DNA of 22,016 nucleotides from an uncultured archaeon (GTDB lineage Archaea; Aenigmatarchaeota; Aenigmatarchaeia; GW2011-AR5). A program made the position numbers and the translations under genes. The first letter of the stretch is position 1. Every line of letters begins with the position of its first letter. The notes beneath the pieces were generated by a model. The model had not been told where the DNA came from and did no database searches. It worked only from the letters and a program-made list of their open reading frames with translations. This document shows, piece by piece, positions 1-14,428 of this stretch. The DNA lies in assembly GCA_964373695.1 (NCBI GenBank), contig CAYJVT010000013.1, forward strand, positions 1-22,016, given 5' to 3'.

Positions 1-1
1 T

Positions 2-1246
2 GTTTATTGGCTTTCTAATGAGTATAGGGTATTTATTTACCTTGAACACATCTTTCTTATTGTATAGAATATCTGCAAGACATATTATGCAATTCGTGTA
101 TTCCCTGCTATATTGATAATTCATCCCGTAATTATCAACATTATCTATAAGTATTTGAAATTCTTTTTTAATTATAGTAGAATCAATGCTGCTATTAGTG
201 ATTTTTTCAATATCTTTTATCTTTTTGTCTAAAGATAAAAATTTCTTATTCAAAAGATATAACTTTCTTTGTTTCAGTTCATTAGATAAATTCTCTATTA
301 GTTCTAAATAAGATCTGCTAAATTCATTATTTTTGTCTTTTGAAAATTTATCAAATTCGTTATAGAATACATCTTTTTCGTGTTGTTTAAAATTTCTTTT
401 TACCTTATTTTCCAAAACTTTAATCATATCTTCATAAGTAAAATTCTTTTTCCTATAGAGAATTATATTTTTGTTTATTTTTGATCTCATGAGCCTTTTC
501 TCAGTATCATTCATGCCAAAAAATCTGCTATGTATCGAGAAAGTTATGAATTGTTTTATACTACGTGAGATGTAGTCTTTACTTTTTTGGCTTGATAATC
601 CTTGTCCTTTACCTATAATTGGTTGCAATGGTTCCGTAACCATATAAATTTCTATAGGCTTTTGAAAAGTGTCGCTTTTTGGAAATGCCTCTATAACAAG
701 CTTTTTACTGGCGAAACTAATCGAAAAGCTAGTTGGCCAAAGTCCTATCCTCTTTGGCTTGAAGTAAATATTACCTTTATTTATTTTTTCTATGGTTTTC
801 TCTCTCTTAGTTCTTGCACGCTCAAGCTTCTCTAGTTCTTTTTGCCAATAATTCTGTGTATGAAATTTTGTTCTCAGAAATCCAGAAATTACATATTCTT
901 TTGGTCTAAAATTAGAAGGTTTTCCTGGGTATCTATCTTTTTTGCTTTCATCCCTTAACATTTCTGATATTGTCGTATATCTGTCTTGTATTTTTTCTAA
1001 TTCTTGTTCTTTCTGTTCTGCTTGTTTTTGCATAGCTCTTTTTAGGTCTTTTATGTCAGTTTCAGCTTGATTAAGTTGCGTCTTATTAAACCAAATGCCA
1101 TGAGAACTATCTTTTGGCGCTAGAGATTCTTTTGGGACACTTTTATAACTCATTCTTGTACAAATAGCTGCCCATTTGTTAAACATTTCGTCAAGAATTT
1201 GATATTGTTCTTCGGATGGCAATAGCCTTAATTTTAAGGCTTTCAT
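2..1246 (-). CDS. cas12f: Type V-F CRISPR effector, Cas14c/Cas12f3-like, N-terminal 415 aa (runs off the left edge; RuvC not in window)
   Basis: Hand translation from ATG at 1246 is open to position 2: MKALKLRLLPSEEQYQILDEMFNKWAAICTRMS...FNKTQLNQAETDIKDLKRAM...NFRPK...FKPKRIGLW...TEPLQPIIGK...HSRFFGMN...KYPILIRKPIN. These blocks match my recollection of Cas14c-type sequences. It starts 2 nt after the cas4 stop in a cas1-cas2-cas4 operon. It is absent from the ORF track, presumably because it has no stop in the window. Confidence 0.82.
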   Translation of the reverse strand, partial: MKALKLRLLPSEEQYQILDEMFNKWAAICTRMSYKSVPKESLAPKDSSHGIWFNKTQLNQAETDIKDLKRAMQKQAEQKEQELEKIQDRYTTISEMLRDESKKDRYPGKPSNFRPKEYVISGFLRTKFHTQNYWQKELEKLERARTKREKTIEKINKGNIYFKPKRIGLWPTSFSISFASKKLVIEAFPKSDTFQKPIEIYMVTEPLQPIIGKGQGLSSQKSKDYISRSIKQFITFSIHSRFFGMNDTEKRLMRSKINKNIILYRKKNFTYEDMIKVLENKVKRNFKQHEKDVFYNEFDKFSKDKNNEFSRSYLELIENLSNELKQRKLYLLNKKFLSLDKKIKDIEKITNSSIDSTIIKKEFQILIDNVDNYGMNYQYSREYTNCIICLADILYNKKDVFKVNKYPILIRKPIN

Positions 1247-1248
1247 TA

Positions 1249-1836
1249 TTAACTTCTCATGCAAATATTCTTAAAACAACAGTCTGTGCATCTTTTGACG
1301 AATTTTGTCGGCTTGGGGTTATGCTCTTGATAGATTATTTTTCCTATTTTTGAGAAAGTTTCTATTAAGTCGGCCTTATCGGCTTCGCTTATGAAGACCT
1401 TTATCAAATCCCCGGAACGCAAGAATTTTATATATCCATAAGGAACTTTATGCCCAAAAATTTCTTCTATAAGCATAGCTTCCATTACAATCTGTCTTTT
1501 CTGTGCCTTGTAAATTTTTCTCGGCGTAAAGCTGTATTTAGCCTGTATAGGATAAGCTTCTCCTTTCTCCTTGTTTATCAATATTGAATCTACTATAGTT
1601 TTCCAGCCCAATTTCTCAAAAACAAGATGAACCTTCAATATCTTAGGCAGTTTTGGATAACTCTTGACGATTTTTGTTCTTCTTGCCTTTGCCTGAAAAT
1701 CCACCTCTTTTTCCCTGCCTTTGTATTCTTTTTTTGTTGTGAACTGGGGTTTCCTCAGAACATGGACAAAATATATTATTCTTGGGCAATAACTGTAATT
1801 CATCAAATCCGTCGCCGTAAGGTATTGCTTCTCCAT
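1249..1836 (-). CDS. cas4: CRISPR-associated Cas4 (Fe-S RecB-like nuclease), 195 aa
   Basis: YCPR N-terminal Cys plus C-terminal CxxCx5C (CTDCCFKNIC) Fe-S ligands; motif II D (IVDSI). The likely start MEKQ at 1836 overlaps the cas2 stop (TGATG), rather than the track start at 1932. Confidence 0.9.
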   Translation of the reverse strand: MEKQYLTATDLMNYSYCPRIIYFVHVLRKPQFTTKKEYKGREKEVDFQAKARRTKIVKSYPKLPKILKVHLVFEKLGWKTIVDSILINKEKGEAYPIQAKYSFTPRKIYKAQKRQIVMEAMLIEEIFGHKVPYGYIKFLRSGDLIKVFISEADKADLIETFSKIGKIIYQEHNPKPTKFVKRCTDCCFKNICMRS

Positions 1837-2132
1837 CAGGCAGCACCGTTCAGGATGAGGAAGTCCCTCTTCTTTATGATTTCCTCGTCGAAATGACCCT
1901 CTATTATCCTGCCGCCGAAGCATACCTTGCATGTGGGAAAGATGAAGACGCAGTTTTCCGTCCCCTGAAGTATTTCCTTTATCTCAATTGAAAGCATGTC
2001 GAGCTTGTTCTTTGTTACGTTGCCAAGAAAGGCGCTCTTCTGCACCCTTTCGAGGCCGTAATCCTTGCATTTCGAGGCTATCCTTGAGCGCAGGTTATTT
2101 TCGGATATGTCATAAATAATCCAGTAAATCAT
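1836..2132 (-). CDS. cas2: CRISPR-associated endoribonuclease Cas2
   Basis: IIYDIS N-terminal motif, YGLERVQKSAFLG, 98 aa, located between cas1 and cas4. Confidence 0.95.
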   Translation of the reverse strand: MIYWIIYDISENNLRSRIASKCKDYGLERVQKSAFLGNVTKNKLDMLSIEIKEILQGTENCVFIFPTCKVCFGGRIIEGHFDEEIIKKRDFLILNGAA

Positions 2133-2136
2133 GGAA

Positions 2137-3153
2137 TCACCATTTATGGATGAAGGGCTTGTATTCGCTTTTCTCCCCCAGAAGGAACTTGGCTATCATC
2201 CTTGCCTGATGGAGCATTATTCTCTGAAGGCTTGCTTTCTTGTCCTTGTAGGTTATTTTTGTGTGGAGCCTTTCCATGACGGCCTCTATGACCTTTTCCC
2301 GGCCTTTTTTGCTCAGCATGAAGCAATTGCCAGATGTCTCGAAGTCGGAATCTTCCACTTTCTTCAGGGCAAAAAGCGTTATTATTGCCCTGTCGACAAC
2401 AGGCTGCCTGAACTCCTCTATCATGTCAAGAACCATGGAAGGCTTGCCGTACCTGTCGGTATGAAGGAAGCCAAGATAAGGGTCAAGACCGGCCAGAATG
2501 CACGACTTCTCAATCTCTGAATAAAGTATCCCGTAGCCGTAATTCAGCATCGCATTCACCGGGTCTTTTGCTTCATGCTCCCTCTGGCTGAAAGGCAGTA
2601 TCTGCGTCAGGCAGGCAAAATATTGGTTTCCCGCGTAACCTTCTATTCCCAGAATCTCCTCGCGCATTTCGTCAACTGTTCCGCTGATTGATTCAAGCTT
2701 TGTCAGAGAATTCAGCATCGAATCTGCGGTTTGACAGAAATCAACCTTTTCCCTTGTCTTACTGAGGGACTTGAGCAAATAAGCCTGGTTTTTCACTTTT
2801 GCCTCAACAAAAGCCTTTACAAGCTTTGGCGCTTTTTCGGTATTATATTGGGTCGCCTGGCTTCTTCTTGTAAGGGTTGTGCCGCCAAGCTTGCATGGAT
2901 AGACCCTTGCAACAGGCATCCCGTAGTAGTTTGTGTATACAATGTCTATGTTGCTTTCCATCGCCAGCTTTACGGCGTCCGTAGAAACAGAGGAAGCCGT
3001 TGAAATTATTATCTGCCTTACCTTGTCTGCAGAGAATTCCTTCTCGATTTCCGTTTCGCTATCGTCTTTGGGTTTCTTGGTCACGATAAATCTGTTTCCC
3101 TGCTTTCCCAAGAACATCCCATAATCGTCCAATATTATTTGCATGTAAAACAT
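2137..3153 (-). CDS. cas1: CRISPR-associated integrase Cas1 (alternative start 3144)
   Basis: LGIEGYAGNQYF, DPVNAMLNYGYGIL, GLDPYLGFLH and LDMIEEFR supply the catalytic E/H/acidic residues; 338 aa. Confidence 0.96.
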   Translation of the reverse strand: MFYMQIILDDYGMFLGKQGNRFIVTKKPKDDSETEIEKEFSADKVRQIIISTASSVSTDAVKLAMESNIDIVYTNYYGMPVARVYPCKLGGTTLTRRSQATQYNTEKAPKLVKAFVEAKVKNQAYLLKSLSKTREKVDFCQTADSMLNSLTKLESISGTVDEMREEILGIEGYAGNQYFACLTQILPFSQREHEAKDPVNAMLNYGYGILYSEIEKSCILAGLDPYLGFLHTDRYGKPSMVLDMIEEFRQPVVDRAIITLFALKKVEDSDFETSGNCFMLSKKGREKVIEAVMERLHTKITYKDKKASLQRIMLHQARMIAKFLLGEKSEYKPFIHKW

Positions 3154-7017: not shown

Positions 7018-7124
7018 AAGAATAAGACGCGATAAATCTTCTTAATAGCAGAAAACAACGATTTTGGGACGTTATCTGCAAAGACCGAAGGTCTTTGATA
7101 TCAAAGCATTCGCATACCATGGAT

Positions 7125-7315
7125 TATAGTGAAACAATAAAATAATACCGGCATTATAGCTTGTTTCACATATATAGTGAACCAAATAAATAAACAGGAT
7201 ATAACTTATTTGGTTCACATATAGTGCCCAAGAAAACTAATAATTATGATTGTTTTCTTGGAGCACTATAGTGCCCAATGATATAATATCCTTTTTATTT
7301 CATTGGAGCACTATA
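7125..7315. mobile_element. Two nested copies of a TA-flanked double-hairpin MITE-like element (outer 7127-7174 + 7271-7313; inner 7175-7268)
   Basis: Four ~50-nt imperfect inverted repeats TATAGTG...CAC(A)TATA start at 7125, 7173, 7220 and 7267. Junctions CACATATATAGTG and CACTATAGTG are exactly what insertion of one TAGTG..CACTA unit into the central TATA of another, with TA duplication, predicts. Confidence 0.7.
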
Positions 7316-7377
7316 AAGCCACGCTCATATTATGAATGCTTATGATTTATGCAAAATGCTATAAGAATAGCGCAAAA

Positions 7378-7491
7378 CTACTTTTTTGACGAATTCATCT
7401 TCTGCTTGCACGCGAAACATATGACGCCTTTCGCCCTGTCAACGAGCCTTATCTTCTTGCACAGGGAGCACCGAGAAATCGACAGTTTCAT
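7378..7491 (-). CDS. Zn-ribbon microprotein, 37 aa
   Basis: MKLSISRCSLCKKIRLVDRAKGVICFACKQKMNSSKK*: two CxxC pairs; AT-rich TATA-like tract upstream near 7510-7520. Confidence 0.65.
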   Translation of the reverse strand: MKLSISRCSLCKKIRLVDRAKGVICFACKQKMNSSKK

Positions 7492-7532
7492 CACTATAAT
7501 TATTACATCCGGTTTGATATAAAGTTATAAAG

Positions 7533-7838
7533 TCACCCGATTTTTCTTACTTCCTTCCTTTCCTCATGCGATTTCAGTATCTGCTCGGACTTCCTGATGC
7601 CGGCGCTGACGAACTTCAGTGTCCTTCCGCGCTCAAGGCGGGAAAGGTTCTGCTCCTCGAGTATGACGAGATTGGGCTCGACCTGGTCAAGGACGGAGAA
7701 TATGGAACTCCTCTTCTCATAGTCCTTCACCTTGTTGGTCTTCTCCCGAATCCTGTCGTATTTTTTCCTGAGCTTATATATCCTGTGGCGCCTGCTTATG
7801 AGAAACGACAGGGGGCCGAATATCCTTCCCAGAACCAT
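7533..7838 (-). CDS. Hypothetical basic helical protein, 101 aa
   Basis: The ORF fills the gap between promoter-like AT tracts, and its composition resembles neighbouring genes. Confidence 0.65.
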   Translation of the reverse strand: MVLGRIFGPLSFLISRRHRIYKLRKKYDRIREKTNKVKDYEKRSSIFSVLDQVEPNLVILEEQNLSRLERGRTLKFVSAGIRKSEQILKSHEERKEVRKIG

Positions 7839-7886
7839 ATGTAATTATACTGTCAGGTTTAATATAAACCCTTCGCAATTATCATT

Positions 7887-8531
7887 ATGGGACGCATAGG
7901 AGTGGACGAGTCCGGGAAGGGCGACTACTTCGGATACCTGGTGGTGGCAGGAGCCTATTCCGACGAGAAGACGGACGCAAAGCTGAAGGAAATGCGGGTA
8001 AGAGATTCGAAAATAATAAGCGACTCCGAATGCCTGAGGCTCTCAACCAGAATAAAAAAAATATTCACCCATGACGTTCTCAAGATATCGCCGGAGAAAT
8101 ACAACAGCCTGTACGGGAAATTCGGCAACCTGAACAAGATGCTCGCATGGGGCCACGCGAAAGTCATAGACAACATGACGAAGAAGGTGAAGTGCACAAA
8201 GGTGATTTCAGACAAGTTCTCCGAGGAAAACCTCATAGAAGGCTACCTCGACCAGATGAAGAAAAATAATCCCGCCCTGGGGAAGGTAAGGCTCGAAAGA
8301 AAGGTCCGCGCGGAGAGCGACATGGCCGTCGCGGCCGCGTCAATCCTAGCAAGGGCCGAATACCTCAGGACGCTGCGCGCCATATCGATGGAGATAGGAT
8401 ACAGCCTGCCCAAGGGCGCTACCCATATCATGCAGGCAAGGGAAGACATCGTCAGGATGCACGGCGAAGACGCCTTGCAGCATGTCGCAAAGCTGCACTT
8501 CAAGATTGGTGGGAGAAAGCAGGGAACATGA
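7887..8531 (+). CDS. rnhC: Ribonuclease HIII-type RNase H (catalytic domain only)
   Basis: IGVDESGKGDYFG, VISDKF, RAESDMAVAAASILAR and LPKGA give a D-E-D-E acidic set typical of RNase HIII rather than HII. Confidence 0.85.
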   Translation: MGRIGVDESGKGDYFGYLVVAGAYSDEKTDAKLKEMRVRDSKIISDSECLRLSTRIKKIFTHDVLKISPEKYNSLYGKFGNLNKMLAWGHAKVIDNMTKKVKCTKVISDKFSEENLIEGYLDQMKKNNPALGKVRLERKVRAESDMAVAAASILARAEYLRTLRAISMEIGYSLPKGATHIMQAREDIVRMHGEDALQHVAKLHFKIGGRKQGT

Positions 8532-8562
8532 GGATTTATAGACTTCTATAAACCCAGAAATA

Positions 8563-9300
8563 ATGGGTCAATTAAAGGTCCTCATGGACTCGGAACAGAG
8601 AGAAAGATATGTTTCCGGCCTTCTCGAGCTTGAGGGATTGGAGGGAGTAGAGGAAGATGTATATGCCGCCTACTGTCCGATATCACTTACATCAACTCCT
8701 CAAAGGATAAAGCCCTACGTAAAGATGCGCCAGGAGATACTGAAAGGAGTTCTAAGACAATCCGGCATCACGCCCTATGACCCAAGCAATTCGGCGTCAT
8801 ACAATCCGGACATTAATAGATCCGCCAAACCCGAAGAAGTATACAATTTCGATTCCATGAGAGTGGCTCAGGCCAGATATTTCACGGGACACATGATTAT
8901 ACCTACATCAGGTTTCGGCGTCGAGATGGAAAAAGCCAGAACATTGAATAAGATAGCTGTCGCCCTATTGGATTCGAACATAAGAATAAGCCGCATGCTG
9001 CCGAGCAGAGTAATATATCTGCAATATGAGAATTTCGGCGACCAGTCCGATGAGTTCGTCCCGGTTTTCGATATGCTGAGGGGATTTGAGCCAGGCATGG
9101 GCCTTGATGACAGAAGACCTGTTCTTCTAGGATTTGAAAGGGGCTCCGGCAGGATAGTGGACCTTGCGGAAGAAGTTTATGCAGGGTTTCCCGAACTGAA
9201 ATTCAAGTATGACAAAGACACACCCCTGCTGGAGCTGGAATGCAGAGACATGGAGCGCATCTACGGAAGCCCGACTGCCAGAACCCTGCATCCAGATTAG
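8563..9300 (+). CDS. Nucleoside 2-deoxyribosyltransferase / DNPH1-like N-glycosidase fold protein
   Basis: PEEVYNFDSMRVAQA...PTSGFGVEMEKARTLNKIAVALL...ISRM parallels the NDT-family pattern VYxxD...PSxGxGxE...KxxxxL...SxM, including the candidate catalytic Glu. Confidence 0.6.
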   Translation: MGQLKVLMDSEQRERYVSGLLELEGLEGVEEDVYAAYCPISLTSTPQRIKPYVKMRQEILKGVLRQSGITPYDPSNSASYNPDINRSAKPEEVYNFDSMRVAQARYFTGHMIIPTSGFGVEMEKARTLNKIAVALLDSNIRISRMLPSRVIYLQYENFGDQSDEFVPVFDMLRGFEPGMGLDDRRPVLLGFERGSGRIVDLAEEVYAGFPELKFKYDKDTPLLELECRDMERIYGSPTARTLHPD

Positions 9301-9416
9301 GACTTCCTCATCTTGTCCTTGCAGACGTTGCATATGCTGCCGGCATTCGATTTCTCGAGCGCCCCCTCGCATATGATGCACTTTCCAGAAAAAGCCTTTT
9401 CTCTCGGGACAGCCAT
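9297..9416 (-). CDS. Zn-ribbon microprotein, 39 aa
   Basis: MAVPREKAFSGKCIICEGALEKSNAGSICNVCKDKMRKS*: two CxxC pairs; its stop overlaps the stop of the convergent NDT-like gene. Confidence 0.65.
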   Translation of the reverse strand: MAVPREKAFSGKCIICEGALEKSNAGSICNVCKDKMRKS

Positions 9417-9545
9417 GTTATCACTGCATTAATTTGCACGGAAAATTTATTAAGGCAAGACCCCAATTACGCCGGAATCACGCCGAAACCCCGCTTAACC
9501 TGTTGAATGACTTTAAGTAATTTCTTGGATAAAGCCATTAACATC

Positions 9546-9583
9546 TCAGAATGAGTGGTGCGCATTCTGAAGATTTAAATCTT
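9546..9583. promoter_or_regulatory. Tandem palindromes over a TATA-like box in the divergent region upstream of sepF
   Basis: TCAGAATG-n9-CATTCTGA (9546-9570) abuts the perfect palindrome AAGATTTAAATCTT (9570-9583), which contains TTTAAA. Confidence 0.45.
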
Positions 9584-9628
9584 TCATGATACATATAATA
9601 AAATATCTTTGACAAAAGAGGTGCGTAT

Positions 9629-9961
9629 ATGCTGAACATTTTCAACAGGAAGAGGGAAGAGGAGCCGAAGATAGAGGAGTTCACTGAAGTCCTCCAGGAA
9701 GATGACGAGCAGAAAAAGATAAACATAATAATAGAGAAGCTCGAGGGCCTCGTGGATGCCGACCCCATAATAAAGAAAGTCAAGGACGGCCACATCGTCC
9801 TCGCCCACATAAAGGGCCTCCGGGAGAGCAACATGGAGGAGCTGAAGCAGAGCATCGGCAAAATCAGGACCTACACCGCCAACATGAACGGCGACGTAGT
9901 GGGCGTCGGCGACGAATGGCTTGTCGTGGCACCGTCAAGCGTCGAGATAAAGAGGAACTAG
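9629..9961 (+). CDS. sepF: Archaeal cell division protein SepF
   Basis: Acidic N-terminal linker, then IIKKVKDGHIVLAHI...LKQSIGKI...GDVVGVGDEWLVVAPSSVEIKR, the archaeal SepF/DUF552 core; GAGGTG RBS upstream. Confidence 0.85.
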   Translation: MLNIFNRKREEEPKIEEFTEVLQEDDEQKKINIIIEKLEGLVDADPIIKKVKDGHIVLAHIKGLRESNMEELKQSIGKIRTYTANMNGDVVGVGDEWLVVAPSSVEIKRN

Positions 9962-10064
9962 GATGCAAAGGTCTAGGGTATATTGAGAAAGAAAAGAAGC
10001 TGGCCTCAGAAGGGCAAGAAGACAGTATGAGACGGCAGAAAGAATTCATTCTAATTTATGTTAT

Positions 10065-10286
10065 ATGAAGGGCAAATCCGGTGCTGAAATCAGGCTACTT
10101 CTGAATAATGAACAACCCAAAGAGTTATATTTCCGCGACCGTGTATATAGAAAACTAATCGGAATGGACCCAGACACTGAAGTTTATAACCCAGAAGCGA
10201 TTGGTATAATCAAACGACAAACTCTAAAGATGGCTGGCAGAATACGGGCGAGAAGAATGTCGGAAAATGAATATACGACTCTCTGA
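10065..10286 (+). CDS. Hypothetical protein, 73 aa
   Basis: ORF in an otherwise empty gap; no recognisable motif. Confidence 0.4.
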   Translation: MKGKSGAEIRLLLNNEQPKELYFRDRVYRKLIGMDPDTEVYNPEAIGIIKRQTLKMAGRIRARRMSENEYTTL

Positions 10287-10419
10287 AGGCTTCTCCAGAA
10301 GAGATAATGTCGTCGATGATGGAAACAACACAGGTACTCTAGAACCTTTAAGAAGCGCATCCTACAATTATAATCAGGCACGTTAGTGCTTATCAATAAA
10401 AAATCGGAGTGTGGTTTGA

Positions 10420-10575
10420 ATGGCAGCAAAGAAAGCTTTCGGCGGATACAAGATATCCTTCAAGGGAAGAAGCGATACAGTAGAAGACGTCTTCGGGAAA
10501 GGAGACCTTGCGCCGAGCGAAATGACCAAGAAACTGTGGGTATACATCAAGGCAAAGAAACTTGCCGGCAAATAA
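10420..10575 (+). CDS. Small SWIB/MDM2-domain-like protein, 51 aa
   Basis: MAAKKAFGGYKISFKGRSDTVEDVFGKGDLAPSEMTKKLWVYIKAKKLAGK*: the P/S-E-x-TKKLW-x-YIK-xx-L SWIB helix motif; GGAGTG RBS at 10406. Confidence 0.75.
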   Translation: MAAKKAFGGYKISFKGRSDTVEDVFGKGDLAPSEMTKKLWVYIKAKKLAGK

Positions 10576-10661
10576 GTTATTTTTCTCTTCTTTTTGTTTC
10601 TCTATCTGTTATAAATACTCGAAGCAGTCATATCATTCTTAACAAAAATGGAGGCGGTTCC

Positions 10662-10832
10662 ATGGGATTGGTAGTTGTATCAGGCGTGAAGGAAGTCGTG
10701 AAGAAGCACGAGATGAACTGCGGCGGGGATTTATGCGAAGCCCTTGACAAGAAGGTGGAGCATCTCATCGCCGAGGCGGCAGCACGCGCGAAGTCCAATG
10801 ACAGGAAGACTGTAAGAGCAGGCGACTTATAA
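10662..10832 (+). CDS. Short histone-fold protein (DUF1931-like), 56 aa
   Basis: MGLVVVSGVKEVVKKHEMNCGGDLCEALDKKVEHLIAEAAARAKSNDRKTVRAGDL*: long central helix and the RKTVxxxDL histone C-terminal motif; GGAGG RBS at 10650. The track's 148-aa start is an upstream read-through. Confidence 0.85.
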   Translation: MGLVVVSGVKEVVKKHEMNCGGDLCEALDKKVEHLIAEAAARAKSNDRKTVRAGDL

Positions 10833-10868
10833 GGTTCCTTTTAATCCTGCGATTTCCATTTTATTTTT

Positions 10869-11624
10869 ATGGCTGTCCTTCTTTCCACATTGCACGACCC
10901 CGACGGGAAGTTCGCCCGGATAAAAAATGCGGAAAAACTTGTGGAAGCCGCGGCTTCCAACTACCCGAAGTCAGTGATAAACATCACGAAGGCCACTTCG
11001 GCCTGGACAAAAAAACTTGTTTTGAAACGCTTCGAGTGCATATACTCGGGAACGGGGAGCATGGGCGAGCACATGGTAAGCCTGATGAAGCACTCATGGA
11101 CAAAAGGCGACACTTTTCATTACTGCGACTTCGACAGGCTGCTGCACTGGCAGCGCCGATATCCGGAGGAGCTGAGGAAAACGGCCCGGGCAGTATCGTC
11201 GTCAAAAGGCTTCATTTTCATAAACAGGAGCAGGCGCGCGTTCGAGAGCCATCCTGAAACCCAGAAGGACACGGAAACGATAATGAACATGGTCGCGTCG
11301 GCGTACATGGGAAGGCGCGTCGACATCGGAAGCGGCACCTTCGGCTTCGACCGGAAAGCGTGCAGGAAATTCTCCATGATAAGGGGCGACGTTTCCGAAC
11401 TGAGGTTCCTCGGGCACTTCATCGCATCCGTAAAGAAAAGCAGGATGCCGGTGAGATGCATAAACTCCGAAGGCATGGAATGGGAAACACCCGACATCCA
11501 CCAGGACGAGATAAGGCGCATAGGGTACAAAAGATGGCTCGCAAGGTTCCAGAGCCAAAAGGAATGGATAAGAAGGACGGAAAACCTGAGGCAGGTCGTC
11601 GAGATACTCACGGATGATTTTTAG
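10869..11624 (+). CDS. Conserved hypothetical protein, possibly GT-A glycosyltransferase-like fold
   Basis: HYCDFDRLLHW (DxD), RAFESHPxxQxxTE and EWETPD blocks that I recognise as a conserved uncharacterised family; the fold is inferred. Confidence 0.6.
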   Translation: MAVLLSTLHDPDGKFARIKNAEKLVEAAASNYPKSVINITKATSAWTKKLVLKRFECIYSGTGSMGEHMVSLMKHSWTKGDTFHYCDFDRLLHWQRRYPEELRKTARAVSSSKGFIFINRSRRAFESHPETQKDTETIMNMVASAYMGRRVDIGSGTFGFDRKACRKFSMIRGDVSELRFLGHFIASVKKSRMPVRCINSEGMEWETPDIHQDEIRRIGYKRWLARFQSQKEWIRRTENLRQVVEILTDDF

Positions 11625-12315
11625 TCTTTTTTCGGCTTTTTTTCTCGGCCGTTGCATGGGCCGCCCTCGCTCTGCATTCTTCCATCAGAACCTCGTCTTC
11701 GCTTAACCTTATCCTCCATGTCTCCCTTTGAGCCTTCGCCCTGTCTGCCACATTCAGCTCCAGGGCATGAACATCTATCAATACCCCACGATAGAGTCCT
11801 TTGGGATACATGGCCAGCAAGCTCGGGTATCTTTCAACATATCTGGCAACAGACGATACTGAAACTTCTTCAGGCGGCAAATACCTGCCGTTTTCGCCTC
11901 TGGTTCCGAATTGCGGTAGTATAACCTTCCTCAATAAAAGCCTTCTCCTCTCCTTCATGCGGCTTCTGTTGTGTTTTGCGGCCCTGCCAATCGCTCTTCT
12001 ATGCGTCTCATAGTCCTGGCTCATGCGGGCTTTCCCCAGATTGTCAAGAATTCTTTGGCGGTGTTCTGCATCAGAACGCATCTTGTGATAAGCCGCTATG
12101 CTTATCGCCTCCCTCCTTCCTACTTCAACTTCCACAAGAGTTCCCCGGTTAATCATTTCATCTATGTCGTCAGCCGCCATTCCGTATGATATAAGGTCTT
12201 GCCGCCTGAATCTGTAGGTTTTCAAAGACAGATAGCCAGCTAAAGACGTATTGACATCTTCGGATTGCCTTACTGCATCAAGTATTTTTTTATGATTGAA
12301 CTGGTAGACCTTCAT
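11608..12315 (-). CDS. Hypothetical, strongly basic protein, 235 aa
   Basis: Long ORF filling the space divergent to XPD; Arg/Lys-rich; no family recognised. Confidence 0.6.
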   Translation of the reverse strand: MKVYQFNHKKILDAVRQSEDVNTSLAGYLSLKTYRFRRQDLISYGMAADDIDEMINRGTLVEVEVGRREAISIAAYHKMRSDAEHRQRILDNLGKARMSQDYETHRRAIGRAAKHNRSRMKERRRLLLRKVILPQFGTRGENGRYLPPEEVSVSSVARYVERYPSLLAMYPKGLYRGVLIDVHALELNVADRAKAQRETWRIRLSEDEVLMEECRARAAHATAEKKSRKKTKNHP

Positions 12316-12378
12316 AGATGGCGTAAAACAGTAAATTATTTATGCTTGATTCTTAAGCCCTTATCCCAATATGTAAGA

Positions 12379-14247
12379 ATGTTCCCGTTCTCCGAGCCGC
12401 GCGCAGTGCAGATGGAATTCATCGCGGACGTAAAGGGCTGTCTTGAGAATAAAAGGCATCTGATAGCGAACGCGCCGACAGGCCTCGGGAAGACTGCGGC
12501 GACCATATCTTCATGCCTTGAATTCGCCATCGAGCACGGGAAGACGGTGTTCTTCCTGACTCCGAGGCACTCCCAGCACCAGATAGCCATAGACACCCTC
12601 AGGCTGATAAAGAAGAAATTCCCCGACAGGAAGTTCACCTCTACCGACATCATAGGGAAGAAATGGCTGTGCTCCGTGGGCGGGATACAGGAGCTGACAA
12701 GCGGCGAGTTCCACAACTACTGCAGGACCGTCGTCAGGGAGGAGAGGTGCAACTACTACAACAACACGAGGTCGAAGAGCCACGCCCTGACCCTATCGGC
12801 TGAATCGAAACTGAAGGAACTCCTTTTGCTGCAGCCCCTTCATGCGGAGGAAACGCTTTCTGACAGGTTCTGCCCGTACGAGCTGCTCATCGACATGGCA
12901 CGGAAGAGCGACATAATAATCGGCGACTATTACCACATATTCTCGCCGCACAGGGGAGCCATGCTCATGAAGATGAAGAAGGAGCTTTCCGACCTTATAC
13001 TCATAGTTGATGAGGCCCACAATCTTCCGGATAGAGTGCGCAGCCTCATGACCAGAAAGCTCAGCTCGCTGTCCCTCGAAAGTGCGATGAAGGAAGCAAA
13101 GGCCTTCGGGTATGAGGACATAAAGCAGAGGATACTGGGCATCATGGAAGCCATGGAGTCCGTCAAGAAGAACAAGCTGAAGAACGACGCGGAAAATTTC
13201 GTCGAGAAGGACGCCTTCACAAGGCTCATGGAGGAGAAGGCCGGGAACCTGGGCGATTTCACTGAGGCGCTGGACGAGGCGGCCGGAGAAGTGATAAAGG
13301 ACAAGAAACGCTCCTACATCGACATGCTTTCGGAGTTCGTCAGGGGATGGACGGAAAGCGACGAGAAGGGCTATTCAAGGGTCATATCCAGGAGGAAGAG
13401 CATGTCCGGAAAAAGTTTCATCCTTCTGAGCCACAGGTGCCTGGACCCGTCCCTGTATACGGGCGACATAATAGGGGGCACGCACTCCACGATAATAATG
13501 TCAGGGACCCTGTCGCCCACGGAGATGTACAGGGACATACTGGGATTCCAGCCCGAAAGGACGGACATGCGGAGCTACAAGTCGCCTTTCCTCAGGAAGA
13601 ACCGACTGAACATAATAGTGAGGGGCGTCACCACAAAATACTCCATGAGGACGGACGACAACTATGCGAAGATGGCAGGCCACATCGTCGAAGCATGCCA
13701 TCGCATCCCGAACAACGTCGCAGTGTTCTTCCCGAGCTACTTCATGAGGGACATGATACACAGGCTTGTAATGGACAGGCTTGGAAAAGAGATAATACTT
13801 GAGGAGCAGAACGCCGGCAAGGCGGAGAAGCGGATGATATACGACAGGTTCGTCGCGGCGCATGAGAAAGGCGCGGTCCTTCTGGGCGTGCAGGCCGGGA
13901 GCTTCGCCGAGGGCGTCGACCTGCCCGGCAAGTTCCTGAACGGCGTGATCGTGGTCGGCATCCCGCTGGAAAGGCCGGACCTTGAGACGAAGGCCCTCAT
14001 AGAATACTACGACTACAAGTTCAAGCGCGGATGGGATTATGGATACACATATCCTGCCATGGTCAGGTCGATACAGGCGGCCGGGCGCTGCATCCGCTCC
14101 GAAAGCGACAGGGGGGTGTGTATATTCCTCGACGAGCGCTTCGGGTGGGCCAACTACAGGAAGGTCTTCCCGCCGGACCTCGACATAAGGACAATGGACA
14201 ATCCGGTGCCGCTTGTGGAGGAGTTCTTCAGGGACGGCAGCTCTTGA
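12379..14247 (+). CDS. xpd: XPD/Rad3-family Fe-S DNA helicase (likely start MFPFSEPR at 12379)
   Basis: Q motif PRAVQ, Walker A APTGLGKT, four Fe-S Cys (WLC, YC, RC, FCPY), DEAH, SGTL, VFFPSY, EGVD, QAAGRCIRS. Confidence 0.93.
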   Translation: MFPFSEPRAVQMEFIADVKGCLENKRHLIANAPTGLGKTAATISSCLEFAIEHGKTVFFLTPRHSQHQIAIDTLRLIKKKFPDRKFTSTDIIGKKWLCSVGGIQELTSGEFHNYCRTVVREERCNYYNNTRSKSHALTLSAESKLKELLLLQPLHAEETLSDRFCPYELLIDMARKSDIIIGDYYHIFSPHRGAMLMKMKKELSDLILIVDEAHNLPDRVRSLMTRKLSSLSLESAMKEAKAFGYEDIKQRILGIMEAMESVKKNKLKNDAENFVEKDAFTRLMEEKAGNLGDFTEALDEAAGEVIKDKKRSYIDMLSEFVRGWTESDEKGYSRVISRRKSMSGKSFILLSHRCLDPSLYTGDIIGGTHSTIIMSGTLSPTEMYRDILGFQPERTDMRSYKSPFLRKNRLNIIVRGVTTKYSMRTDDNYAKMAGHIVEACHRIPNNVAVFFPSYFMRDMIHRLVMDRLGKEIILEEQNAGKAEKRMIYDRFVAAHEKGAVLLGVQAGSFAEGVDLPGKFLNGVIVVGIPLERPDLETKALIEYYDYKFKRGWDYGYTYPAMVRSIQAAGRCIRSESDRGVCIFLDERFGWANYRKVFPPDLDIRTMDNPVPLVEEFFRDGSS

Positions 14248-14332
14248 AATCCGTGCGAGGAATAGAAGCAGTTGTATCACACGATAAAGAAGTCATGTCT
14301 ATAATAAATTTCATAAGCCTAAATTTTAGGTT

Positions 14333-14428
14333 TATAGTGAAACAAGCAAATAAACAGGATATGATTTGCTTGTTTCACATATAGTTCCAAAGAAAAGTAT
14401 ATATTGAATCTTTTCTTTGAGCACTATA
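14333..14428. mobile_element. Third copy of the TA-flanked double-hairpin element (core 14335-14426)
   Basis: TA-TAGTGAAACAAGCAAAT-AAACAGGATATG-ATTTGCTTGTTTCAC-A-TATA-GTTCCAAAGAAAAG...CTTTTCTTTG-A-GCACTA-TA; colinear with 7173-7270 and sharing the loop AAATAAACAGGATAT. Confidence 0.7.

Follow-up and report, generated by a model that had tools for sequence, protein, structure and literature searches.

What are the paired hairpins that lie on a single contig of an uncultured archaeon, and is it their fold that an enzyme reads? The DNA analysed here (the window) is 22,016 nucleotides (nt) long and is the whole of contig C13 of G000, an Aenigmatarchaeota genome of 1.02 Mb in 60 contigs. Six imperfect hairpins were found in it, three of one type (A1–A3) and three of another (B1–B3). 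The initial annotation saw in them covarying stems, unpaired bases at fixed places and a conserved loop. It took these features to point to a structure-specific, integron attC-like recombination system or to RNA processing. Our answer is different. The hairpins probably form a MITE (miniature inverted-repeat transposable element) derived from an IS630/Tc1-mariner-family insertion sequence (IS) of Aenigmatarchaeota-type DPANN archaea, and would most likely be moved in trans by that IS. We put the probability of this reading, which is drawn from sequence comparison, at about 85%.

The MITE unit consists of hairpin A followed by hairpin B and measures 94–98 nt, including the TATA at both ends. 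The element itself is ~92–96 nt long and non-coding. Each of its ends aligns with a terminal inverted repeat (TIR) of the IS described below. The relevant features of the window are these.

7125–7174, plus strand: hairpin A1, the left half of an outer MITE copy that is split by a nested insertion; unpaired A at 7170; fold z-score −3.6.
7267–7315, plus strand: hairpin B1, which completes the outer MITE copy on the right; its unpaired A is at 7307; fold z-score −6.5.
7173–7270, plus strand: inner MITE copy, made of hairpins A2 (7173–7223) and B2 (7220–7270); model match 114.9 bits.
7175–7268, plus strand: the inner MITE, element proper (TAG...CTA), with TA flanks at 7173–7174 and 7269–7270.
7173–7203, plus strand: left TIR of the MITE, comprising the left arm and 'loop' of hairpin A; matches the start of the IS630-type IS over 31 nt in a gap-free alignment.
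7240–7270, minus strand: right TIR of the MITE, comprising the 'loop' and right arm of hairpin B; position 9 of the repeat is the unpaired A at 7262.
9539–9540, no strand: empty TA target site; G001, a genome of the same genus, carries a MITE exactly here (G001:C30:6933–7028), with the TA duplicated.
14333–14428, plus strand: third MITE copy, made of hairpins A3 (14333–14383) and B3 (14380–14428); model match 104.5 bits.

Every hairpin begins TATAG. The A-type hairpins end CAC-A-TATA, the B-type hairpins end G-A-GCAC-TATA, and adjoining hairpins have a TATA in common. As the initial annotation stated, all six contain one unpaired A at a place specific to their type: 7170, 7219 and 14379 in the A-type (within CAC-A-TATA), and 7262, 7307 and 14420 in the B-type (within G-A-GCAC). 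Folded as DNA, all six are far better than shuffled sequences (z −3.6 to −9.2). The window contains the motif TATAGTG 9 times, where 1.15 occurrences would be expected. A base-by-base comparison of the inner and third copies reproduced exactly the five compensated stem changes and one uncompensated change that had been reported. Three of the compensated changes are in hairpin A (C:G>A:T, A:T>G:C and T:A>C:G) and two in hairpin B (C:G>A:T and C:G>G:C). The uncompensated change, G>T at 14386, gives a T:C mismatch; it is private to the third copy, since a sister copy at C4:7373 has the pairing G. The loop AAATAAACAGGATAT, described as conserved, is indeed present in both copies. The third copy lies between convergent genes for an XPD-like helicase and a Fic protein.

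The mode of insertion can be read from sites that differ between two genomes of the same genus. Four sites are filled in G001 and empty in G000. In each case, a single TA has become TA-element-TA at a T|TA|A-like sequence; one of the four empty sites is that at 9539–9540. MITE sites are thus polymorphic, present in one genome and absent from the other. Duplication of TA is the signature of IS630/Tc1-mariner transposition (ISY100; PMC2170065). Nesting of the copies tells the same story. The block at 7125–7315 is one unit (A2B2) inside another (A1...B1), with the insertion at the second TA of the outer copy's central TATA. Because the nested copy is bordered by six bases of TA repeat on the left and four on the right, TA duplication is the only one among simple schemes that fits. 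Intact A1–B1 copies exist elsewhere in G000, at C1:78928, C3:27334, C4:7719 and C4:45276.

The nested block is itself the cargo of a larger insertion, as follows.

7046–7361, plus strand: composite insertion, an outer element of ~125 nt (TAGCAG...ATGCTA) carrying the nested MITEs; TAA at 7043–7045 and at 7362–7364.

The composite is absent from the syntenic site on G001:C30, where a single TAA is found. A second copy, 97.8% identical, is located at C3:55493–55812; the outer carrier element moved as a unit, together with its nested MITE cargo. The carrier (7046–7124 plus 7316–7361) also holds a small hairpin of its own, CTGCAAAGACC-GAA-GGTCTTTG.

An autonomous relative was found by a DDE_3 search among related genomes, which led to G007:C27. 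Here, an open reading frame (ORF) of 347 amino acids (aa) lies between the ends TATAGCTAACCC... and ...CTTGGCTAGCTATA. Four full-length copies of this IS occur in G007, G044 and G061; each is exactly 1128 nt long, has imperfect TIRs of ~28 nt and is flanked by TA. The 347-aa protein contains HTH_29/32/33 and DDE_3 domains. It matches the NCBIfam model NF033545 (IS630 family transposase) with 228.8 bits, compared with a cut-off of 100.

The ends of the IS and of the MITE are homologous. At the left, a gap-free alignment of 31 nt matches the start of the IS with the left arm and loop of hairpin A, and up to 26 of 31 positions are identical (for example, the left end of the G044 IS against the A4 copy of G000). 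The last ~30 nt align, also without gaps, to the loop and right arm of hairpin B, including the unpaired A, and ~21 of 28 positions are identical. IS right ends read CTTGG-A/C-(G/T)AGC-TATA; copy G061b has CTTGG-A-GAGC-TATA and L143 has CTTGG-A-TAGC-TATA. The 'conserved loop' is therefore the inner half of the TIR, where IS and MITE resemble each other most; the inner 14 nt of the TIR are given as AAAnAAtCnGGAyATG. Similarly, the one unpaired A of hairpin B is TIR position 9, and the full-length IS, whose end is not folded, also has a base there. In hairpin B, this A is unpaired because the inner arm is one base short. The IS ends themselves fold no better than shuffles (z −0.9 to +1.5), compared with z −3.6 to −9.2 for the MITE halves, although in one IS copy a forerunner of hairpin A can be made out, if a weak one (7 of 9). 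Since the IS ends are unfolded and the MITE ends folded, the two hairpins are a feature of the MITE.

In the model that we favour, each MITE end is a TIR of ~31 nt. The outer 13–17 nt form the outer arm of a hairpin and the inner 14 nt form the 'loop'; the inner arm of the hairpin is a short internal segment complementary to the outer TIR. The transposase of ISY100, an IS630-family element, binds its TIR via two N-terminal helix-turn-helix motifs, inserts into TA and duplicates it (PMC2170065). By analogy, the inner part of the MITE TIR would be bound in duplex DNA by the helix-turn-helix domains of the transposase, and the loop is probably that binding site. Movement would be by DDE cut-and-paste into T|TA|A with duplication of the TA, the putative enzyme being of IS630 type and acting in trans. 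The fold would not be the signal read by a structure-specific recombinase. The MITE is like ISY100 and other IS630/Tc1-mariner elements in having an autonomous relative with an NF033545 protein, imperfect TIRs of ~28 nt and TA flanks. It differs in that it carries no gene, and the nearest full-length IS copies are in other genera of the same order.

To measure how far the pairing is conserved, copies were gathered from ~21 related genomes and 56 distinct copies were aligned with MAFFT. In this set, 95.5% of stem cells pair; 18 of the 29 pairs change on both sides and 221 cells hold such a change. The covariation score was 0.374, compared with 0.118 in shuffles (0 of 500 reached 0.374) and no more than 0.095 with slid partners. 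A smaller set of 13 copies had changes on both sides in 13 of 31 pairs. We also made a separate count with fixed geometry, and no fitted alignment, on 64 unique copies. Watson–Crick pairs made up at least 90% at stem positions 5–15 of hairpin A and 5–16 of hairpin B, with up to four pair types at a position. The bulged base of hairpin B, ninth from the 3′ end, was A in 57 of the 64, and the spacer base of hairpin A was A in 58. None of the 64 was a hairpin B without the bulge. A larger alignment had been named beforehand as the test of the proposed structure; it contained covariation and no random bulge positions, and the structural claim stands. These observations support the conclusion that base pairing in the stems, not sequence alone, is conserved across an archaeal order, with the position of the unpaired A kept. 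The outer TIR sequence varies between subfamilies and the inner arm follows it. The most conserved bases of the MITE are those in common with the IS TIR, not the structural ones.

G000 holds ~25 complete MITE copies and a further ~9 that are cut by contig ends. There are at least four subfamilies with identical members, as well as diverged copies. A covariance model of the unit matches 25 of 41 related genomes, with 25–95 matches in each of G001, G002, G006 and G014. In a 151-genome sample of the phylum, the MITE was confined to the window's own family; the 41-genome search added four other families of the same order. A 1-Mb genome holds ~25 to 50 copies. The copies lie between genes in 61 of 62 cases, in short intergenic regions, and many MITEs occupy promoter-like TA-rich gaps or lie beside tRNA genes. 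Neither a tandem repeat search nor a tRNA search found anything at the MITE. A self-BLAST of G000 for multi-copy IS of more than 500 nt returned none. Orientation with respect to the flanking genes was even for the 62 copies (24 each way at 3′ ends and 22 each way at 5′ ends). With G041 added, there were 35 same and 31 opposite at 3′ ends, 37 and 31 at 5′ ends, and 72 and 62 in total. In G041 itself, 15 of 19 strong copies on contigs C1 and C2 are on the plus strand of their contig. This excess fits neither the gene-strand bias, which runs one way in C1 and the other way in the first 200 kb of C2, nor the flat GC skew (780 kb), and may be chance.

Two orthologous sites carry a MITE in both of the genomes compared (C2:53522 of G000 and G001:C12; C3:27334 of G000 and G002:C28). 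At both, one hairpin is of a different subfamily in the two genomes, which suggests either that MITEs were inserted more than once at the same TA or that one copy took the place of another. One of the sites is directly behind a tRNA gene. The tRNA gene beside C2:53522 has 29 extra bases in G000 compared with G001, a possible intron or insertion. In G006, other mini-hairpin families, such as GGTGGATTCCATGAATCCACC and CATGGTAAAGCAAAGCTTTACC, are found inside the MITE (L050:46–195, L051:10528–10677 and L055:18068–18215). They are inserted in the loop of hairpin B or at the central junction. Contigs C20, C22, C24, C33, C35 and C38 of G000 all stop ~50 nt inside a MITE, at the A|B junction, and the repeat evidently breaks the assembly at these ends. 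We rejected the idea that such ends mark a longer element because assembly breaks ~50 nt into the repeat explain them better.

Several points weigh against the MITE reading. No IS630-type transposase was found in the assemblies of G000, G001, G002, G006 and G014, nor any DDE_3 match in the first four, although these genomes are rich in MITEs. With no transposase in the G000 assembly, TIR homology and an argument about loss during binning are what tie the MITE to the enzyme. Beyond TATAG, the left TIR of a MITE matches its right TIR only in part. Finally, no copy has lost the hairpin B bulge, and a purely neutral self-correcting palindrome would be expected to lose it sometimes. The binning argument is as follows. 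Metagenomes contain ~60 close homologues of the transposase, 60–87% identical and 347 aa long, many of them on contigs of ~1130 nt. Two carry the NCBI name IS630 family transposase, Candidatus Aenigmatarchaeota, in line with the placement of G000, and one of the ~1130-nt contigs is the IS plus one base on each side. Such lone contigs look like a collapsed multi-copy repeat and are too short for most binning. Hence, absence of the IS from the bins is weak evidence. The TA duplication, the polymorphism of sites and the TIR homology are direct observations; from the last of these, together with the metagenome contigs, we infer the trans-acting IS630 enzyme and its link to the MITEs of G000.

The TA duplication and the TIR homology also bear on whether the MITEs could be recombination sites read as folded single strands via extrahelical bases, either in the manner of attC or as IS200/IS605 or repetitive extragenic palindromic (REP) elements served by a Y1 HUH transposase. 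Covarying stems with an unpaired base at a fixed place do recall attC sites and the ends of IS608, and G000 encodes a Y1_Tnp protein (C52:1357–1749), with a fragment of another such gene on C17. However, HUH or integron recombination makes no TA target-site duplication, and homology to the IS630 TIR accounts for both the loop and the hairpin B bulge. The hairpin feet are TATAG...CTATA in all copies and not attC core sites; the initial annotation had noted the absence of GTT/AAC cores. Nor is there a fixed orientation behind ORFs, given the 35 same and 31 opposite copies at 3′ ends. The Y1 gene has its own, unrelated GC-rich hairpins. Furthermore, Y1_Tnp was found in only 10 of 41 genomes and not in the MITE-rich G001, G002, G006 and G014. 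We consider recognition as a folded single strand very improbable, and largely refuted already by the TA duplication and TIR homology. On the same grounds, namely the unrelated C52 hairpins, the lack of co-occurrence with Y1_Tnp and the duplicated TA, we rejected a Y1 HUH-moved palindrome-associated transposable element (PATE) of IS200/IS605 type or a REP-like element. Elements of these types insert beside a particular tetra- or pentanucleotide and duplicate no target. TnpB-like matches on C11 were rejected as a driver, not being linked to the MITE. We found no attC array or neighbouring integrase; MITE copies are dispersed and the two Phage_integrase matches are on other contigs, C21 and C5. 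The Y1 locus (C52:1200–1800) comprises an IS200-type transposase gene of 130 aa with its GC-rich end hairpins, and both ends of contig C52 (60–120 and 3540–3644) carry a further repeat, TTGCACTTGAATGCACAAATGTATGAAAACC...

A second alternative is that the MITE works as RNA, with the hairpin pair terminating, stabilising or being processed in transcripts and the covariation reflecting RNA structure. There are precedents. The bcr1 repeat of the Bacillus cereus group is transcribed and keeps an RNA fold by compensatory changes (Delihas 2011, PMC3184786), and an influence on genes transcribed along with them is predicted for the BOX and RUP repeats of pneumococcus (PMC3049150). The location of copies in short intergenic regions would also suit such a role. 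Conversely, orientation is even at both 3′ (35 against 31) and 5′ (37 against 31) gene ends. G:T wobbles number 43 and A:C mismatches 46, so that the test for a strand-specific fold showed no asymmetry and no excess of G:U-compatible pairs. An Rfam search matched no family to the MITE, and the bases conserved best are those of the IS TIR rather than structural ones. Together, even orientation and the lack of a wobble excess count against a strand-specific role, whether as RNA or as a single strand. We regard function as RNA as doubtful; an RNA role that is independent of orientation is possible. The proposal of a structure-specific recombination or RNA-processing system thus gives way before the TA duplication, the IS630 TIR homology, the even orientation, the absence of a wobble excess and the lack of an Rfam match.

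If the MITE is an ordinary IS630-type passenger, why is its fold kept? Pairing that persists through many TIR changes has either been selected in the lineages that spread or been restored by templated correction. The latter needs no selection: quasi-palindromes would correct themselves by intrastrand template switching, or copies would be homogenised by gene conversion, and covariation would follow. Templated correction of quasi-palindromes is an established mutational process. Consistent with it, an added T in copy C9:12151 provides a partner for the A of hairpin A that is otherwise unpaired, and even between the copies most like each other, 40% of the stem pairs that differ have changed on both sides with pairing preserved. 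On the other hand, all 64 unique copies have the hairpin B bulge, although the pairs to either side of it covary. Mutations seen in one copy alone mostly lack compensation (14386 in the window; C8, C27 and C2:53522), and IS ends with a weak version of the same inverted repeat have not turned into hairpins. Covariation entirely without selection therefore seems to us rather unlikely. The balance of compensated and single changes among close pairs favours neither selection nor self-correction. Of the earlier claim that the folded structure is under selection, the conservation of pairing (95.5% of stem cells; 18 of 29 pairs) holds; correction within the repeats, which the initial annotation itself had named as a possible source of the covariation, may also account for it.

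Amongst the reasons for which the fold might be kept, we lean, at somewhat less than even odds, towards a DNA-level aid to the transposition of a very short element. A cruciform or bend might join the ends, or might make the flanking and central TA a good target. Tolerance or function in transcripts, independent of orientation, is a more tentative suggestion, as is quasi-palindrome self-correction without selection; some other reason is improbable. A stronger version of the DNA-level proposal, that the fold-back is a working part of transposition, strikes us as unlikely. Here, an IS630-type DDE transposase or a host factor would act only on extruded hairpins, a cruciform or exposed single strands, and the unpaired A would set the register. 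If true, a Tc1/mariner/IS630-type reaction, otherwise known to run purely on duplex DNA and sequence, would contain a step that depends on structure. This would explain the pairing of ends in so short an element and the nesting of copies in each other's central TATA.

The MITE reading has parallels in bacteria. RUP (IS630-Spn1) and Nezha (ISNpu3-like) are MITEs with TIRs resembling those of IS630-family elements thought to move them in trans (PMC3049150, PMC3184786). Like the element described here, they are non-coding, multi-copy and ~100–170 bp long, with IS630-family TIRs. The two TIRs of RUP and of BOX pair with one another, so that the repeat forms a single long fold (PMC3049150). Each TIR of the window MITE, by contrast, folds back on a complementary internal segment of its own; the result is two separate hairpins, each with a bulge of one base, and the host is an archaeal DPANN order. 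Correia elements (CREE/NEMIS) are confined to Neisseria and have 26-bp TIRs that pair with each other. They too are small, non-coding, TA-flanked intergenic repeats, often near promoters. Correia elements have no known cognate transposase; the window MITE differs in having an identified cognate IS630-type IS, two independent hairpins and an archaeal host. The bcr1 repeat is likewise MITE-like, with a cruciform-like fold kept by compensatory base-pair changes (Delihas 2011, PMC3184786), and covariation in a MITE is thus not new in itself. Unlike the window MITE, bcr1 has 5-bp direct repeats, a structure proposed to act at the RNA level and a different transposon family. The likeness to integron attC sites lies in imperfect hairpins, variable stems and, apparently, unpaired bases at fixed places, the one in hairpin B being a TIR nucleotide that the unfolded IS end also has. 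In contrast, attC sites are built on RYYYAAC/GTTRRRY cores, point in a fixed direction behind cassette ORFs, are served by IntI and duplicate no target, and the window MITE has none of these properties. A literature search found no paper describing this MITE family. This analysis contributes the autonomous IS630 partner, the assignment of loop and bulge to parts of its TIR, counts of covariation and bulges on a large set of copies, and tests of orientation and wobble.

Elsewhere in the window, positions 1–3153 of the minus strand hold a CRISPR adaptation module with Cas1 (2137–3153) and Cas4 (1249–1932). A 421-aa ORF (2–1264) adjoins Cas1/Cas4; it has no Pfam match, and the local G+C content is only 24–34%. 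No CRISPR array was found in the window beside the module.

The analysis names an IS630-family transposon as the likely driver of a recurrent repeat in tiny archaeal genomes. Since the MITE breaks contigs, it matters for the annotation and assembly of DPANN genomes. Signs reminiscent of attC, that is covariation, fixed unpaired bases and a conserved loop, can arise in an ordinary DDE-transposon MITE and are alone no mark of structure-specific recombination. Lastly, the separate folding of each end, and the kept bulge, bear on how very short transposons pair their ends.

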